Below, piece after piece: positions 3,172 to 32,867 of a DNA stretch of 64,000 bases (within the stretch, counting starts at the first letter, position 1; every line of letters starts with the position of its first letter). The translations under genes and the position numbers were made by a program. Source of the DNA: an uncultured Clostridia bacterium. Its GTDB lineage: Bacteria > Bacillota > Clostridia > Christensenellales > UBA1242. The DNA lies in NCBI GenBank assembly GCA_944349895.1, contig CALVNQ010000001.1, positions 145,461 to 209,460 of the forward strand, written 5' to 3'. The notes below the pieces were generated by a model. It did no database searches and was not told where the DNA came from. It worked only from the letters and a program-made list of their open reading frames with translations.

Positions 3172-3543
3172 TTATATACCCTGTTTTTTAAAAATTTTTA
3201 AAAATTCAACAATAGCTAAAATAACCAGAAAACCCCCAAAAATTTTTCTTAAGACTAAACTTGGGACATAAGTTGCCAAAACCGATCCCAAAATAGCAAA
3301 AACCACTCCACCCAAAATAATCCAAATGAGATTTTTTGTAACAATAAAACCATTTTTGGAATGTATGACGAGCGAAAATAAAGCCATAACGACAAAAGTC
3401 AAGAGATTGATTCCTTGACTAAGCTGCTGATTAAATCCCAAAAAGATGGTTAAAAGAGGAATTAAGAGCGTCCCACCGCCCATACCGAGGCCACCAAAAA
3501 AACCTCCTAAAACCCCAAATAAAACCTGTAAAAAAAACATCAT
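3172..3543 (-). CDS. TauE/SafE (DUF81)-family membrane protein, C-terminal-half equivalent
   Basis: The 123-aa protein is polytopic and hydrophobic, with a GLGMGGGTLLIPLL motif. Its start overlaps the upstream stop (ATGATG/TGA at 3538-3543). Confidence 0.65.
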   Translation of the reverse strand: MMFFLQVLFGVLGGFFGGLGMGGGTLLIPLLTIFLGFNQQLSQGINLLTFVVMALFSLVIHSKNGFIVTKNLIWIILGGVVFAILGSVLATYVPSLVLRKIFGGFLVILAIVEFLKIFKKQGI

Positions 3544-3953
3544 AAAATAAGTCTAATTCCTCCAACTAACATTATTAAAGAAAACAATATTCTTAAAATT
3601 TTCGATGACATAAATTTTAAGCATAATGAACCAATAATCCCCCCTAAAAGAACACCGAGCCCAACTGTTAAAAGTGGGAGTGAATCTACAGCTCCATTAA
3701 AGACATAAATAAAACAACTTATCAAAGATAAAGGAAATATAACAGCAATAGCTGTAGCATGAGCTTGTTTGTTATTCAAATTAAGACTTTTTTCAAGCGT
3801 TGGCACACAAATCATACCACCTCCACCGCCAAAAAATCCATTTAAAAAACCTATCACTCCACCGAGCAATATTAGCAATAATTTCTTTTTAACATTAAAG
3901 CCATTTTTAACCTTGTTTTTTGACTTTTTAAAAGACTTTTTTTGTTTTCTCAC
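3540..3953 (-). CDS. TauE/SafE (DUF81)-family membrane protein, N-terminal-half equivalent
   Basis: The 137-aa protein has a basic N-terminus followed by TM helices and an FFGGGGGMICVPTL motif. It is translationally coupled to 3172-3543. Confidence 0.65.
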   Translation of the reverse strand: MRKQKKSFKKSKNKVKNGFNVKKKLLLILLGGVIGFLNGFFGGGGGMICVPTLEKSLNLNNKQAHATAIAVIFPLSLISCFIYVFNGAVDSLPLLTVGLGVLLGGIIGSLCLKFMSSKILRILFSLIMLVGGIRLIL

Positions 3954-7795: not shown

Positions 7796-7955
7796 ATATC
7801 CTCCAAAATTACATTGCCATTATAACTATATAAATAAACATTGTCCACTAATTTTGAGCATTTTTTTAAAAAAAATAAAAAAATTTTAATAATTTATTTT
7901 TTAATATAATTATGACATATCTCAGAAAATATTGTCTCTAAATAAAATATAAAGA

Positions 7956-21630: not shown

Positions 21631-22668
21631 ATGAAAAAAATAGTTTTTACAGGTGGTGGAACAGCTGGCCACATTTACCCAAACTTAGCAATAGCTGAAG
21701 AATTGGTTGATTATGAAAAACATTATATAGGAACAGACGCCATGGAAAAAGATATATTAAAAAAATATGACCATATTATTTTTCATGAAATAAAAGCTGT
21801 AAAATTTAACAGAGGCAACATAATTAAAAATTTTTTATTACCGATCAAATTGTTATTTTCCATAAAACAAGCAAAAAAAATTTTACGAGAAATAAAACCT
21901 GACGTTATTTTCTCAAAAGGAGGCTATGTTTCATTGCCAGTTGCAATAGCGTCGAAAAAATTAAATATACCATTGATAACTCATGAATCAGATTTAACAT
22001 TAGGTCTTGCCAACAAAATAATTTCTAAATATGCAACAGTGGTATGCACTACGTTTTATGAAACCAGTAAACTTAATAAAAAATATTTATGGACAGGGCA
22101 ACCTTTAAGAAAGTCAATATATGAAGGAAATAAAATAAAAGTATTAAAAAAAATTAAATTTCCAAACAAACCTATAATATTATTTGTTGGAGGCAGTCTA
22201 GGTGCAAAAAAAATTAACGATCTACTTGACGATCCAACTTATTTAACCCAAAATTATGTTATAATACATTCGGTTGGTAAAAATAATTACCCAAATATAC
22301 AAGCACAAGAAAATTATTATCCATTTGCATACCTAGATCCCATATCAAACTTTTATTCTGCTGCAGACTTAGTAGTAACAAGAGCTGGTTCTGGCGTAAT
22401 TAATGAGCTTTTAGCATTAAAGAAGCCTATGTTAATGCTCCCTCTTTCAAAAGATGCCTCGCGAGGCGATCAAATAGACAATGCTAAATTATTTACAAAA
22501 CTGGGATATGGAGAAATGATATTGGACGAAAATCTAACTAAAGAAAAGCTTAAAGAGTCCATTGATAAAATGCTAACAAATATAAATAAATATAAGAAAA
22601 ATCTTGAAAAAGCAGATAAAAACGAAGCAACAAAAAAAATAATTGAATTAATTAAAAAGTTTAGTTAA
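21631..22668 (+). CDS. murG: UDP-N-acetylglucosamine--LPS/lipid I N-acetylglucosamine transferase MurG
   Basis: It has a GGTAGHIYP G-loop, is 345 aa long, and carries a C-terminal GSGVINELL block. Confidence 0.8.
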   Translation: MKKIVFTGGGTAGHIYPNLAIAEELVDYEKHYIGTDAMEKDILKKYDHIIFHEIKAVKFNRGNIIKNFLLPIKLLFSIKQAKKILREIKPDVIFSKGGYVSLPVAIASKKLNIPLITHESDLTLGLANKIISKYATVVCTTFYETSKLNKKYLWTGQPLRKSIYEGNKIKVLKKIKFPNKPIILFVGGSLGAKKINDLLDDPTYLTQNYVIIHSVGKNNYPNIQAQENYYPFAYLDPISNFYSAADLVVTRAGSGVINELLALKKPMLMLPLSKDASRGDQIDNAKLFTKLGYGEMILDENLTKEKLKESIDKMLTNINKYKKNLEKADKNEATKKIIELIKKFS

Positions 22669-23793
22669 ATTTGGATAACCAAAGCCTTCCATATTTTTAT
22701 TAAAAGAAATAGGTTGACAAGACAGCAATAATTTTCTTTTAGCTTCATCGGGAGAAATATTTTTATATTTTTCACAAAATAAAGTCATGGCTCCCGCAAT
22801 CATTGGTGTCGCCACACTTGTGCCACTTAACTTAACATAGTCTCCACCACTTCCACAAGAAGTTATATCCACTGCTGGGGCGACAATATCCGGCTTAAAG
22901 CTCTTGAAAGAAGGACCTCTTGATGAGAAGTTGGCTATCTCATAAAACTCAGGAGAAAAAGATCTATCATCTAACCTGTTATCATCCATGCCCCCAACAG
23001 TGATAATCTTACGACTAACTCCTGGGCTTTTTATAGATTGAAATTCAGGACCACTATTGCCAGCTGCGGCGACAACAATAACACCCTCTTTCCATAAAGC
23101 TTCTGCGCCATTCATAATTGGATCATTATACCCAAGGGGCTCACTCCCAAAACTCATACAAACAACTCTGATGTTGTTTTTTTTATGGTTATCAAAAACC
23201 CACTCCATAGCGGAGAGAATTTTATTAGAATATGCTTCGCCATTTTTATCTAAAGCCTTTAAAGCATAAATATTGGATTTAGGTGCAAAGCCTTTATATT
23301 TACCAGCGCTAACGGCACCAGATCCTGAACAAACCCCCGCTATAAAAGTTCCGTGACCGTTATCATCATAAACCGTCTTTTTATCATTAACAAAATCAAT
23401 AAATTTTTTAATGCGATTTTGTCCTAAACAAAAATCATAATGATTCGCAATGCCAGTGTCTATAAAAGCCACTCCAATTCCCTCGCCCGTCAAAGAAGTT
23501 TCAGGCAATTTTAAAACCTTTTTTGCTATATACATTAAAGCCATTGCACAACTATTAGAACAAATAAATTTAACATTATTTTGGAGCGAAAGAAATTCAA
23601 TATCTCTTTTTGTAGCATAAATGTAAAAAGACTTTATGAATAAATATTCATTCAAAATTTCTATTTTTCTATGTAAAAGAATAGATTTTAGTTGATTAAA
23701 TCTATTAGTACTAATTAAACATTTAAATTTTTTTTCATCATTAGCAGTTGTAGTAATAAAAACAAGATAAGAATCAATTTTGTTTATATTCAT
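22648..23793 (-). CDS. Subtilisin-like (S8) serine peptidase
   Basis: The catalytic triad contexts are FIDTGI (Asp), HGTFIAG (His) and GTSVATPMIAG (Ser). Confidence 0.8.
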   Translation of the reverse strand: MNINKIDSYLVFITTTANDEKKFKCLISTNRFNQLKSILLHRKIEILNEYLFIKSFYIYATKRDIEFLSLQNNVKFICSNSCAMALMYIAKKVLKLPETSLTGEGIGVAFIDTGIANHYDFCLGQNRIKKFIDFVNDKKTVYDDNGHGTFIAGVCSGSGAVSAGKYKGFAPKSNIYALKALDKNGEAYSNKILSAMEWVFDNHKKNNIRVVCMSFGSEPLGYNDPIMNGAEALWKEGVIVVAAAGNSGPEFQSIKSPGVSRKIITVGGMDDNRLDDRSFSPEFYEIANFSSRGPSFKSFKPDIVAPAVDITSCGSGGDYVKLSGTSVATPMIAGAMTLFCEKYKNISPDEAKRKLLLSCQPISFNKNMEGFGYPNLTKLFN

Positions 23794-25877: not shown

Positions 25878-26582
25878 TTATTTGTCAATAATATCAATCT
25901 TACTTTCTTGGTTGTCAGTTTGATTGTTATCTTCATCAAGCTTAACTGACTCATCTTCAACATTTTCTTCTTGAGATAAATTTTTATTATTATTTTGTTT
26001 TTTAGATTTCTTTTCAAACCAAAAAATTGTTAAAATTTTGCCTAAGATGAGAATTATTTTTTCAGCGTGCACCATCGAATATCTTTTCATTAAAGCCTTT
26101 CCTGAAATGATAAGAGCGGCAATAATTGCAGAAACTAAAGAAGCAATAACAATGGCCACGAATGGTGACATACTTTCATAGGTTAATGCAATAGTAACAG
26201 ATGCCCCAGCAGCACCACTTAATATGCCACAAATATCCCCTAAAATATCTGCAATAATGCTTGCGACTCTGTCGGCATTTTTTATAAGTTTTATAGCCTG
26301 CTTGGCTCCTTTAACTTTTTTTGAAGCCATAGCCATAAAAGGTTGAATATCACAAGCGACAATCGCAACCCCTATCATATCTGTTAAAATGGACAAAATA
26401 ACGAAAACAAGAATAACAATAATAGAAATAACTATGCTGGCATTATTTAAAGCAAGTTCACTAATAATACCAAAAATCATAGACAAAAAAAAGGAAAGGA
26501 ATAAAACAATTAAGGGCCATTGGAACCAAGTTTTAAACAAAGAATTCTTTTTTTTATTGTTATCAAATTGTTTTTTAGCCAT
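25878..26582 (-). CDS. Membrane protein, possibly a CNNM/DUF21-like transmembrane domain without cytosolic domains
   Basis: I chose ATG at 26582 with GAGG 6 nt upstream. There are about 4 TM helices and a polar tail. The DUF21 resemblance (KGAKQAIKLIKNADRVASIIADILGDICGILSG) is weak. Confidence 0.4.
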   Translation of the reverse strand: MAKKQFDNNKKKNSLFKTWFQWPLIVLFLSFFLSMIFGIISELALNNASIVISIIVILVFVILSILTDMIGVAIVACDIQPFMAMASKKVKGAKQAIKLIKNADRVASIIADILGDICGILSGAAGASVTIALTYESMSPFVAIVIASLVSAIIAALIISGKALMKRYSMVHAEKIILILGKILTIFWFEKKSKKQNNNKNLSQEENVEDESVKLDEDNNQTDNQESKIDIIDK

Positions 26583-26608
26583 ACAAAACCTCAAAAAAAC
26601 AAAATTTT

Positions 26609-26636
26609 AAAAAATAGAGCCTTATCATAGGCTCTA
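26609..26636 (-). terminator. Intrinsic terminator ending the 580-nt noncoding unit
   Basis: On the minus strand, TAGAGCC (26636-26630) pairs with GGCTCTA (26621-26615) around an 8-nt loop and is followed by U6 (26614-26609). Confidence 0.75.
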
Positions 26637-27189
26637 AGAGAAGGCAACAATATAAGTAAACCTTGCGCCATAGGTTCGGTCGGATTTCCCAATTCCGCAC
26701 TCAACGTCACCGTTTAAGCAGTTTCCTTTTAAGCAGAATATAACACCGAATCGCCACTTAGAACACACTATAATCCTCATATTGCCTACAAAAAAGTAAC
26801 AGTCTAGAAGCTTTCCTTAACATTTTGCACAAGTTATTCTTCTGTTTTGCAAATATAATTTCATAAGAAGATACAAATTTTATTGGCCAGTAAAATTTAT
26901 AAATTTAACTTAATCCCGAAATATTCACTCAAGATAGGCTACACTACACACAACTTTTATCGCATGTAGGTTCTTTCTCAGAGAGTAAACTACTTCACCC
27001 TGTTGAGTCTCCACGAAAATTGGGTGTTGAACTGTATGCCATTACAGTGCGCCCAATAATCTTAACTCCCAGCATTCACCCCAGTTTGGGCAACCAAAGC
27101 AAACACCAGGAACTTCATCGATATGCCTGTCGATGCCATTACTTCATCTTCCTAACCAATGCAAAATGACTAGAATACTGCACCTTCAC
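26609..27189 (-). ncRNA. Unassigned ~580-nt noncoding transcription unit (candidate large structured RNA or long cis-leader)
   Basis: This is a 650-nt gap with no minus-strand ORF of 60 aa or more. It has its own extended -10 promoter and terminator. Hand-counted G+C is 40-50% per 60-nt line at 26941-27120, versus about 3% in an ordinary spacer line (7861-7920). Local helices include CATCGA/TCGATG (27116-27135) and TTGGG..ACTGTA/TACAGT..CCCAA (27020-27056). A GNRA-type GGGA loop hairpin lies at 26681-26697. Confidence 0.55.
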
Positions 27190-27190
27190 A

Positions 27191-27224
27191 ATTATATTAT
27201 ATCACATTTTAGCAAAAAATGCAA
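27191..27224 (-). promoter_or_regulatory. Near-consensus sigma-A promoter with extended -10
   Basis: On the minus strand: TTGCAT (27224-27219), a 17-nt spacer ending TGa, then TATAAT (27201-27196). A second overlapping TATAAT lies at 27196-27191. Confidence 0.65.
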
Positions 27225-27256
27225 TATAACAATTTACAAGAAAATAAAAGTACAAA

Positions 27257-29160
<1,904 letters not shown>

Positions 29161-29270
29161 AAATTCCTCCTAAATATATATAAGATTTTACTATTTAGTC
29201 ATAAATTTGTAAAGCAAAAGTGCCAACATTGAGAGCATACTTTGTCAAATTAGCTCATAAAAATAAATAA

Positions 29271-32370: not shown

Positions 32371-32397
32371 AGAAAAAAGAGGGTTATTCGCCCTCTT
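32371..32397 (-). terminator. Intrinsic terminator at the end of the phage-derived operon
   Basis: On the minus strand, AAGAGGG pairs with CCCTCTT with the holin TAA stop codon in the loop (32386-32384), followed by UUUUUU (32378-32373). Confidence 0.7.
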
Positions 32398-32644
32398 TTT
32401 CATCGCTCGAATCATCATAATCTGTTGTAATTTCAATTTCTTCGTTTTTATCTTTTGTTGAAGCAGGCAATGTCACCACACCAAACACCACAAGAAGCCC
32501 AGCAACAGACATAACAATATCGGTGACAAGTTTTTCCTCAATTTCAAAACCAAAAGCTCTGCCAAGCGCACCTATGAGTATAACCAAAGCACTTGCTAAA
32601 GCTGTCCAAAAACTATACGAGCGAATCAGATTTTTTATCTTCAT
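32384..32644 (-). CDS. Phage holin, two-TM (phiLC3/LL-H-like family)
   Basis: The protein MKIKNLIRSYSFWTALASALVILIGALGRAFG...VAGLLVVFGVVTL is followed by an acidic tail. A strong RBS (AAAGGAGG) lies before the ATG at 32644. Confidence 0.7.
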   Translation of the reverse strand: MKIKNLIRSYSFWTALASALVILIGALGRAFGFEIEEKLVTDIVMSVAGLLVVFGVVTLPASTKDKNEEIEITTDYDDSSDEKEGE

Positions 32645-32867
32645 TTTTTTTCCTCCTTTTAGGAGTAACAACTTCTTTTAAATATTCAACATCTTCTTTG
32701 ATTTGATCTATGACGCCGATATGATTGGTAAGATTTTCAATGGTTTTTTGATATTTTTCTTCTCTTTTTTTACTATCTTTTAACTGATAACAAAATAAAG
32801 CGACAAACAAAACAGCAAAAATACCATTGCTAATAATCACACTAACAATTTCTTGCCAAACAGCCAT
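32613..32867 (-). CDS. BhlA/UviB-family holin-like protein
   Basis: The protein MAVWQEIVSVIISNGIFAVLFVALFCYQLKDSKKREEKY carries the FAVLF...SK.RE.K pattern I recall from B. subtilis BhlA. The ATG at 32867 lies 1 nt after the upstream stop. Confidence 0.65.
   Translation of the reverse strand: MAVWQEIVSVIISNGIFAVLFVALFCYQLKDSKKREEKYQKTIENLTNHIGVIDQIKEDVEYLKEVVTPKRRKKNEDKKSDSLV

Follow-up and report, generated by a model that had tools for sequence, protein, structure and literature searches.

An OLE RNA gene followed by oapA downstream of groEL in an uncultured gut Clostridia bacterium

OLE RNA in the spacer downstream of groEL

We analysed a 64,000-nt stretch of DNA (hereafter, the window) on contig CALVNQ010000001.1 of an uncultured Clostridia bacterium, focusing on the long spacer that follows groEL. 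This spacer is almost certainly an ole gene, encoding the ornate, large, extremophilic (OLE) RNA, with the partner gene oapA behind it. The whole window was scanned on both strands with 4227 Rfam families at their gathering thresholds, and the OLE family (RF01071) matched 27202..26625 on the minus strand with 356.8 bits (gathering score 50, E = 3.2e-101), spanning model positions 1-616 of 616 without truncation. Only two families passed their thresholds, OLE and Bacteria_large_SRP, the RNA of the signal recognition particle (SRP). Family membership, the fold, the conservation of promoter and terminator, and the linkage to OapA are directly established here. The OLE class, its OapA partner and the reduced variants of gut Clostridia have already been published, and the locus adds nothing categorically new.

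A previous reading of this stretch from its letters (hereafter, the sequence-only reading) had proposed an independently transcribed large ornate RNA, with OLE as the first name on its list, and had suggested an Rfam covariance-model scan and a search for covariation in homologous spacers. Both checks were run, and the full-length RF01071 match and the covariation with 12 related genomes support the proposal.

The gap at 26595-27256 is the longest stretch of the window that is free of open reading frames (ORFs), bounded by the groEL stop at 27257 and the ATG of the next minus-strand gene at 26582. It measures 662 nt in a window with a coding density of 94%, and the next-longest such gap has 417 nt and lies around the SRP RNA, as expected from the earlier remark that this spacer exceeds all others in a compact region. 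The ORF scan also agreed with that reading in finding no minus-strand ORF of ≥60 aa across the ~580 nt of the RNA or elsewhere in the gap (the biggest internal ones have 48-49 aa); a 76-aa mechanical ORF on the plus strand (27133-27363) runs antisense into groEL. The G+C contents counted by hand for the lines of 26941-27120 (40, 43 and 50%) and for an ordinary spacer at 7861-7920 (about 3%) were reproduced exactly (0.40, 0.43, 0.50 and 0.03). Overall the enrichment is modest, with 37.7% G+C in the OLE RNA vs 31.3% in the window.

Relatives were gathered by searching species-representative genomes with the OapA protein of the window, which yielded 18 loci with 37-72% identity. Uncultured gut Clostridia/Firmicutes metagenome-assembled genomes (MAGs) account for 17 of them, including Candidatus Onthoplasma faecigallinarum, placed by NCBI in Clostridia, and the most distant locus (L018, 37% identity) is labelled as a Bacillaceae MAG. 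OLE hosts are Bacillota, most often anaerobes or extremophiles, and these relatives agree indirectly with such a host. In 12 related loci a full-length OLE RNA (351-412 bits) lies directly upstream of the OapA homologue on the same strand, and a thirteenth (L004) holds only the OLE 3' end, at the contig edge. The window copy and its 12 relatives, with 66-84% identity to the window copy, formed the set of 13 full-length RNAs used for covariation.

The RNAalifold consensus of this set contains 166 predicted pairs, which were compared with 500 column shuffles and with partner columns slid by 1-3. Standard pairing was found in 96.7% of cells, vs 88.1% in the shuffles and 36-45% with slid partners. 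Compensatory double changes occurred at 66 of the 166 pairs, vs 35.8 ± 3.2 in the shuffles, and no shuffle (0/500) reached any of the observed measures. Because both pairing and compensatory changes exceed those in the shuffled and slid controls, selection acts on the RNA structure in this clade, a result that does not rest on the Rfam model.

There is next to no chance that the spacer holds a different large RNA or a decayed protein-coding gene. Such a reading could point to a size near that of ROOL, to M-box-like words in the 5' part and to a holin-like ORF ~5 kb away, and the sequence-only reading had indeed raised ROOL, GOLLD and a phage association. Against it, ROOL, GOLLD, raiA, 6S, RNase P, tmRNA and M-box each lacked a match in the whole-window scan, where OLE and the SRP RNA alone were found among the 4227 families, so the M-box-like words do not mark an M-box. 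The phage association also failed, as OLE has no link to phages and the related loci include no viral sequence. A decayed gene is opposed by the helix substitutions, which are compensatory and not codon-periodic, and by the in-gap ORFs, all ≤49 aa.

Two observations concern the relatives themselves. The Bacillaceae MAG (GB_MAG13_007, L018:6001-6585) encodes an OapA homologue that keeps the DxxxD and TDMIGVA motifs at 37% identity, and no OLE RNA was found within ~6 kb on either side of it, even at E ≤ 1; the gene could be an OapA-like orphan, or ole may lie elsewhere in that genome. In 5 of the 18 assemblies (L002, L004, L005, L006 and L016) the contig starts within ~250 nt upstream of oapA, with the break inside OLE in L004 and OLE entirely missing from the other four contigs. 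From this pattern, the conserved OLE sequence seems to be a point where metagenome assemblies are prone to break, and OLE may be under-counted in MAGs.

Promoter, terminator and the oapA gene

The transcription signals and flanking genes are as follows, all on the minus strand.

27257..29160, minus strand: groES (29160-28879) and groEL (28864-27257), directly upstream of ole (GroEL 802 bits, GroES 112 bits)
27219..27224, minus strand: -35 box TTGCAT, read directly from the sequence
27196..27204, minus strand: extended -10 element TGaTATAAT (TG 27204-27203, TATAAT 27201-27196), with a 17-nt spacer from the -35 box
26609..27188, minus strand: predicted primary OLE transcript of ~580 nt, from the putative start (27189-27187) to the terminator U-tract
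26609..26636, minus strand: intrinsic terminator, TAGAGCC 26636-26630, 8-nt loop, GGCTCTA 26621-26615 and U6 26614-26609
25878..26592, minus strand: oapA, encoding a 234-aa membrane protein (ribosome-binding site GAGG 26592-26589, ATG 26582, stop 25880-25878)

The extended -10 promoter described by the sequence-only reading (TTGCAT, 17 nt, TGnTATAAT) is conserved in the clade. TATAAT is invariant in all 13 aligned loci and stands at a fixed 7-8 nt ahead of the first RNA helix; TGn precedes it in 10 of the 13, and the -35 box begins with TTG in every locus and reads TTGCAT or TTGCAA in 10. A consensus promoter scan missed the ole promoter because TTGCAT scores only 3/6. From the conserved TATAAT spacing, the transcript would start at ~27188, about where the closing helix of the molecule begins.

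This promoter bears on the reading that the RNA is only the 3' untranslated region of groEL or a read-through product that lacks its own promoter, which we consider extremely unlikely. As had been noted from the sequence, the terminator scan of 27257-27202 found no terminator-like site in the 32 nt between the groEL stop and the -35 box, and the order groES-groEL-ole-oapA is kept in the same-species contigs L019-L022, both of which would fit a read-through product. What speaks against it is the invariant TATAAT of an extended -10 element at a fixed distance from the first helix in 13/13 species, together with the upstream flanks of the 12 other species, none of which has groESL in the available 0.05-5.3 kb upstream of OLE. 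OapA is the sole neighbour common to all loci, and the other flanks vary by species. Since it has its own conserved promoter and terminator, and OapA is its only constant neighbour, ole-oapA is a self-contained cassette here.

At the 3' end, the TAGAGCC/GGCTCTA hairpin with U6 proposed earlier was recovered as an intrinsic terminator (-12.1 kcal/mol) and is present in 12 of the 13 full-length loci. The same stem recurs letter for letter in 13 relatives (the L004 fragment and 12 full-length OLE loci), with variation in the loop (4-9 nt) and the 5' flank; in L017, a U-tract right after the closing helix takes the place of the hairpin. Within the window and L001-L022, the hairpin was found at OLE 3' ends only. 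We rejected it as a unique OLE signature, as metagenomes gave at least 120 matches to its 17-base pattern TAGAGCC...GGCTCTATTT, common in unrelated contexts of 23-62% G+C, and among the matches listed 2/120 adjoin an OLE motif. These two, L063 and L134, are the sole ones among the matches listed with the hairpin 32-33 nt past the OLE 3' motif GGGAAAUCC.ACC.AACCUA.

The gene after ole is of the OapA type, the obligate partner of OLE. The sequence-only reading had called its product a DUF21-like membrane protein, and this is supported by a sub-threshold match to the Pfam CNNM/DUF21 family (PF01595; residues 56-187, 23 bits, below the cut-off of 28.4) together with the published description of OapA as a small protein with several membrane passes and weak homology to the CNNM domain of MpfA (PMC11332333, PMC12265935). 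No other Pfam domain was found in the protein, including CBS-pair and CorC/HlyC; against NCBIfam, which has no OapA model, it matched no family (the sole match was a spurious 18-bit MFS hit), and a phmmer search of all PDB sequences returned nothing at E ≤ 1.

Strong hydrophobic segments of OapA are centred, in the hydropathy windows, at residues ~27-37, 45-71 and 145-157, with weaker peaks at ~115 and 138, and a basic loop carries 7 K/R in residues 78-105. Its DxxxD motif is DILGD (residues 112-116), with both aspartates invariant in 19/19 homologues; they match D100 and D104, the residues mutated in the PM1 allele of Halalkalibacterium halodurans OapA (PMC9723947). TDMIGVA, GAK, AD..GD and GKA are also invariant. 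Two homologues (L012:3011-3829 and L015:5803-6591) have a ~50-residue acidic N-terminal extension (Asp, Asn, Glu) before the first hydrophobic segment, and in most homologues the C-terminal tail is variable, with many Lys, Asn and Glu residues.

The position of oapA brings in a further alternative, in which the RNA works mainly in cis, controlling oapA through the terminator as a long leader or attenuator, and is not free-standing. The order of elements (promoter, structured RNA, terminator, gene) is reminiscent of a riboswitch, and the oapA ATG lies only 32 nt past the terminator stem, with similarly short distances in L012 (38 nt) and L015 (43 nt), so that oapA expression is probably gated by the terminator. 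We nevertheless judge this very unlikely as the main function. In 9 of the 12 relatives the spacer between terminator and oapA is 68-310 nt, often with a TATAAT-like box of its own, which indicates that conservation of the RNA does not depend on attenuator geometry; the Rfam scan gave no cis-regulatory family; and by experiment the OLE family acts as a stable, abundant component of a ribonucleoprotein (RNP) (PMC12265935). The cis-regulatory leader offered as an alternative by the sequence-only reading is thus unsupported as the main function, and what is left of it is a possible partial cis effect of the terminator on oapA.

Secondary structure and comparison with known OLE systems

The elements of the OLE RNA are listed from 5' to 3', all on the minus strand, with helices numbered as in the covariation set.

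27182..27187, minus strand: GAAGGU, 5' strand of the molecule-closing helix, paired with GCCUUC 26645-26640
27153..27181, minus strand: 5' strands of long-range helices 2-5, P2-like, P3-like (7 bp) and P3.1-like (5 bp), with partners at 26836-26799
27117..27122, minus strand: AUCGAU palindrome at the base of the 21-bp hairpin, a candidate OapA contact site
27066..27112, minus strand: 21-bp hairpin with a GCCCA loop (helix 8; Rfam model positions 88-139)
27015..27061, minus strand: two-tier helix TTGGG..ACTGTA/TACAGT..CCCAA (helices 9-11)
27007-26977, minus strand: shortened P7-like hairpin (with the P8-like hairpin, helices 12 and 13 of the covariation set)
26971-26941, minus strand: P8-like hairpin (helices 12 and 13 of the covariation set)
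26849..26928, minus strand: P9 arm, long and AU-rich, with a palindromic GGCC loop at 26888-26885 (helices 14-17, all covarying)
26646..26786, minus strand: 3' domain (helices 20-28), with the closing helix 26786-26776/26656-26646 and a P12.2-like helix
26719-26699, minus strand: P13 hairpin with a GUGA loop, within the 3' domain
26690-26682, minus strand: invariant GGGAAAUCC block, within the 3' domain

The pairing of GAAGG with CCUUC, suggested earlier as a closure of the whole molecule, covaries (column pair 24:594 is A-U in 8 and G-C in 5). Next to it, the long-range helices connect the 5' region with the part that follows P9 and are not part of the Rfam structure. Their P2-like strands are GCAG and UCUAG, the latter with a CUAG palindrome, and the P3/P3.1-type helices add up to 12 bp (7 + 5; 27168-27153 with 26836-26821), and all but one of these pairs (11 of 12) show compensatory changes. 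The P numbers are assigned by position and are thus tentative; P3 and P3.1 usually sum to 12 bp, and they have been proposed as a connector that spans the membrane, with "J9/3" as its boundary (PMC12265935). Published OapA sites lie at two palindromes, close to P2 and P4a (PMC12265935), and AUCGAU at 27117..27122 may be one of them.

The 21-bp hairpin is paired in 97.8% of cells, with compensatory changes at 5 pairs. The two-tier helix that the sequence-only reading had drawn at 27020-27056 stands, with covariation in helices 10 and 11, and is flanked by invariant UUAAG and CGUGGAGA, both of which match the Rfam consensus. Published work places the OLE kink-turn for OapC/bS21 in this region, at the base of P5 (PMC9723947, PMC12286853), and a kink-turn may form here too. 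Two other hairpins of that reading are unsupported because covariation assigns their bases to other partners. In the CATCGA/TCGATG hairpin, CAUC pairs with an upstream GAUG (C-G in 9, U-A in 4), and the helix as drawn was rejected, being broken by TCTGTG in four relatives. In the hairpin with a GGGA loop, CGGAAU instead pairs with AUUCUG, as the 3' strand of a helix that covaries, and the GGGAAAUCC motif is invariant.

The palindrome in the P9 loop (L9.3) is maintained across the 13 RNAs, as GGCC in 10, UCGA in 2 and GCGC in 1. These changes match the covariation signature of a kissing contact; by cryo-EM, the L9.3 palindrome is the intermolecular kissing contact of dimer bridge B3 (PMC12286853). 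The P13 loop is of the GNRA type in 13/13 (GUGA, GCGA or GUAA), and an unpaired A, a possible counterpart of the bulge U498 in H. halodurans, is found in the 5' strand of the stem. The OapB site of H. halodurans is this same P13 loop (PMC7936274).

Compared with the full-length OLE RNAs of H. halodurans, Clostridium acetobutylicum and C. botulinum, the window RNA matches all conserved blocks and Rfam helices end to end. It shares with them oapA immediately downstream, the 12-bp P3/P3.1-type connector, the palindromic L9.3, the P13 GNRA loop and the GGGAAAUCC block, and its ~580 nt is close to the 577 nt of the C. acetobutylicum RNA (PMC12286853). The Rfam consensus has 13 nt more in the distal P7, 3 nt more in P8 and one additional small hairpin of ~19 nt in the 3' domain (model positions ~479-497); in the alignment, the P7/P8 shortening and the hairpin loss are clade-wide. 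A further difference is the AU-rich composition of the window RNA. The setting differs as well, with OLE inside a long polycistronic cluster in H. halodurans (PMC12265935) and with its own promoter and dedicated terminator in the window, where the neighbours are groESL and an ABC ATPase instead of the isoprenoid, DNA-repair or translation genes of full-length OLE systems.

The window copy is close to variant 1, published from reduced-genome gut Clostridia (TANB77 clade; Fernando & Breaker 2024, PMC11332333). The likeness comprises an uncultured, low-G+C gut host, shortened P7 and P8, the lack of an OapB- or OapC-like gene near OLE in the 64-kb window, and a bit score between those of full-length and strongly reduced forms; the published variant cut-offs of 310-390 bits (PMC11332333) belong to a different covariance model and are not directly applicable to that score. 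Variant 1 often lacks P9 and P13-loop nucleotides, whereas P9 is nearly full length in the window and the GNRA loop of P13 is kept throughout the set.

On the protein side, the CNNM-type match of OapA (23 bits, under the Pfam gathering score) makes it weakly similar to the transmembrane domain of the Mg2+ transport proteins MpfA/CorB/CNNM, and it lacks their CBS-pair and CorC/HlyC domains. The OLE RNP has been proposed as a functional counterpart of MpfA (PMC11332333, PMC12265935).

Genomic setting, proposed function and significance

Downstream of ole-oapA lie genes for an uncharacterised protein and for the ABC ATPase. The exact OapA protein was found on at least 22 contigs, and gene callers left the OLE gap empty in L019-L022. 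No CIRCE element, the HrcA operator, was found with ≤3 mismatches in the whole window, including 29161-29270 upstream of groES, and groESL regulation in this organism may be independent of HrcA.

The window also encodes MurG, MurI and the germination protease Gpr (PF03418; 30731-31567, minus strand), and because of Gpr the host is a spore-former, probably an uncultured gut bacterium of the Clostridia type. A small holin-like ORF (32387-32671, minus strand), ~5 kb from ole and with no evident link to it, is probably the phage-derived module of the sequence-only reading. A subtilase (Peptidase_S8) is encoded at 22648-23793 (minus strand), and S8 genes likewise occur within a few kb of ole-oapA in L003, L004, L006 and L007, that is, in 5/19 loci and on either side; this could be chance, given the many S8 paralogues.

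Elsewhere, the Bacteria_large_SRP RNA (RF01854; 55581-55846, plus strand, 154.4 bits, full length) explains the second-longest ORF-free gap. Each of two abutting minus-strand ORFs corresponds to one half of the TauE/SafE sulfite-exporter profile: the upstream ORF, 3953-3543, to profile positions 118-237 and the downstream ORF, 3543-3175, to positions 2-111. Either this region (3175-3953) encodes two subunits of half size, or its gene has been rearranged or split.

We propose that a sigma-A extended -10 promoter would start ole transcription at about the first helix and that the intrinsic terminator would mostly end it ~580 nt later, giving an RNA that should need no end processing. Transcripts of groESL may add to it by read-through, since no terminator follows groEL. 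Partial read-through of the ole terminator is most likely the main source of oapA expression, because the ATG, only 32 nt past the stem, leaves room for only a weak TAAAAT box, and the RNA would then be in large excess over the protein.

By analogy with H. halodurans and with the clostridial cryo-EM structures, the OLE RNA would dimerise through the palindromic P9 loop. It would bind OapA, in effect a CNNM-like transmembrane domain without cytoplasmic regulatory domains, presumably at palindromic RNA sites. The two together would form a membrane-bound RNP that helps the cell tolerate Mg2+, cold, alcohol and carbon-source stress.

Several points weigh against this account. The transcript ends, the RNA abundance and the terminator read-through are predictions from the DNA, and a weak -10-like TAAAAT (26609-26604) follows the terminator and might serve as a separate minor promoter for oapA. 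The proposed physiological role carries over findings made in a distant alkaliphile. The usual OLE setting, a large polycistronic cluster of housekeeping genes, is absent here, and OapB-like KOW, OapC-like L7Ae and bS21 domains were not found among the small ORFs of the window (the partner scan covered 17 of the 20 small ORFs and three larger neighbours, with the other three small ORFs covered in the Pfam scan), a negative that applies to these 64 kb and not to the rest of the genome.

We also consider it possible, though rather unlikely, that OLE doubles as an autoregulatory leader. The invariant 3' hairpin 32-43 nt before oapA would then act as a regulated terminator whose read-through tracks OLE folding or OapA occupancy, and groESL read-through would couple OLE/OapA dosage to heat-shock transcription in this species.

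OLE is among the largest and most conserved bacterial RNAs of unexplained biochemical function, and recent structures suggest that it may span the membrane. The OLE call annotates a gap that gene callers leave empty, and the points of modest interest are the autonomy of the cassette, the invariant 3' hairpin before oapA, and the dimerisation and OapB-type elements kept in a trimmed RNA. The promoter-RNA-terminator-oapA cassette of ~1.35 kb is a clean and compact example in an AT-rich genome. With a trimmed P7 and one lost hairpin, yet with the connector, the dimerisation loop and the OapB-type loop kept, the window OLE would be useful as a natural "minimised" construct for structural and heterologous-expression work.

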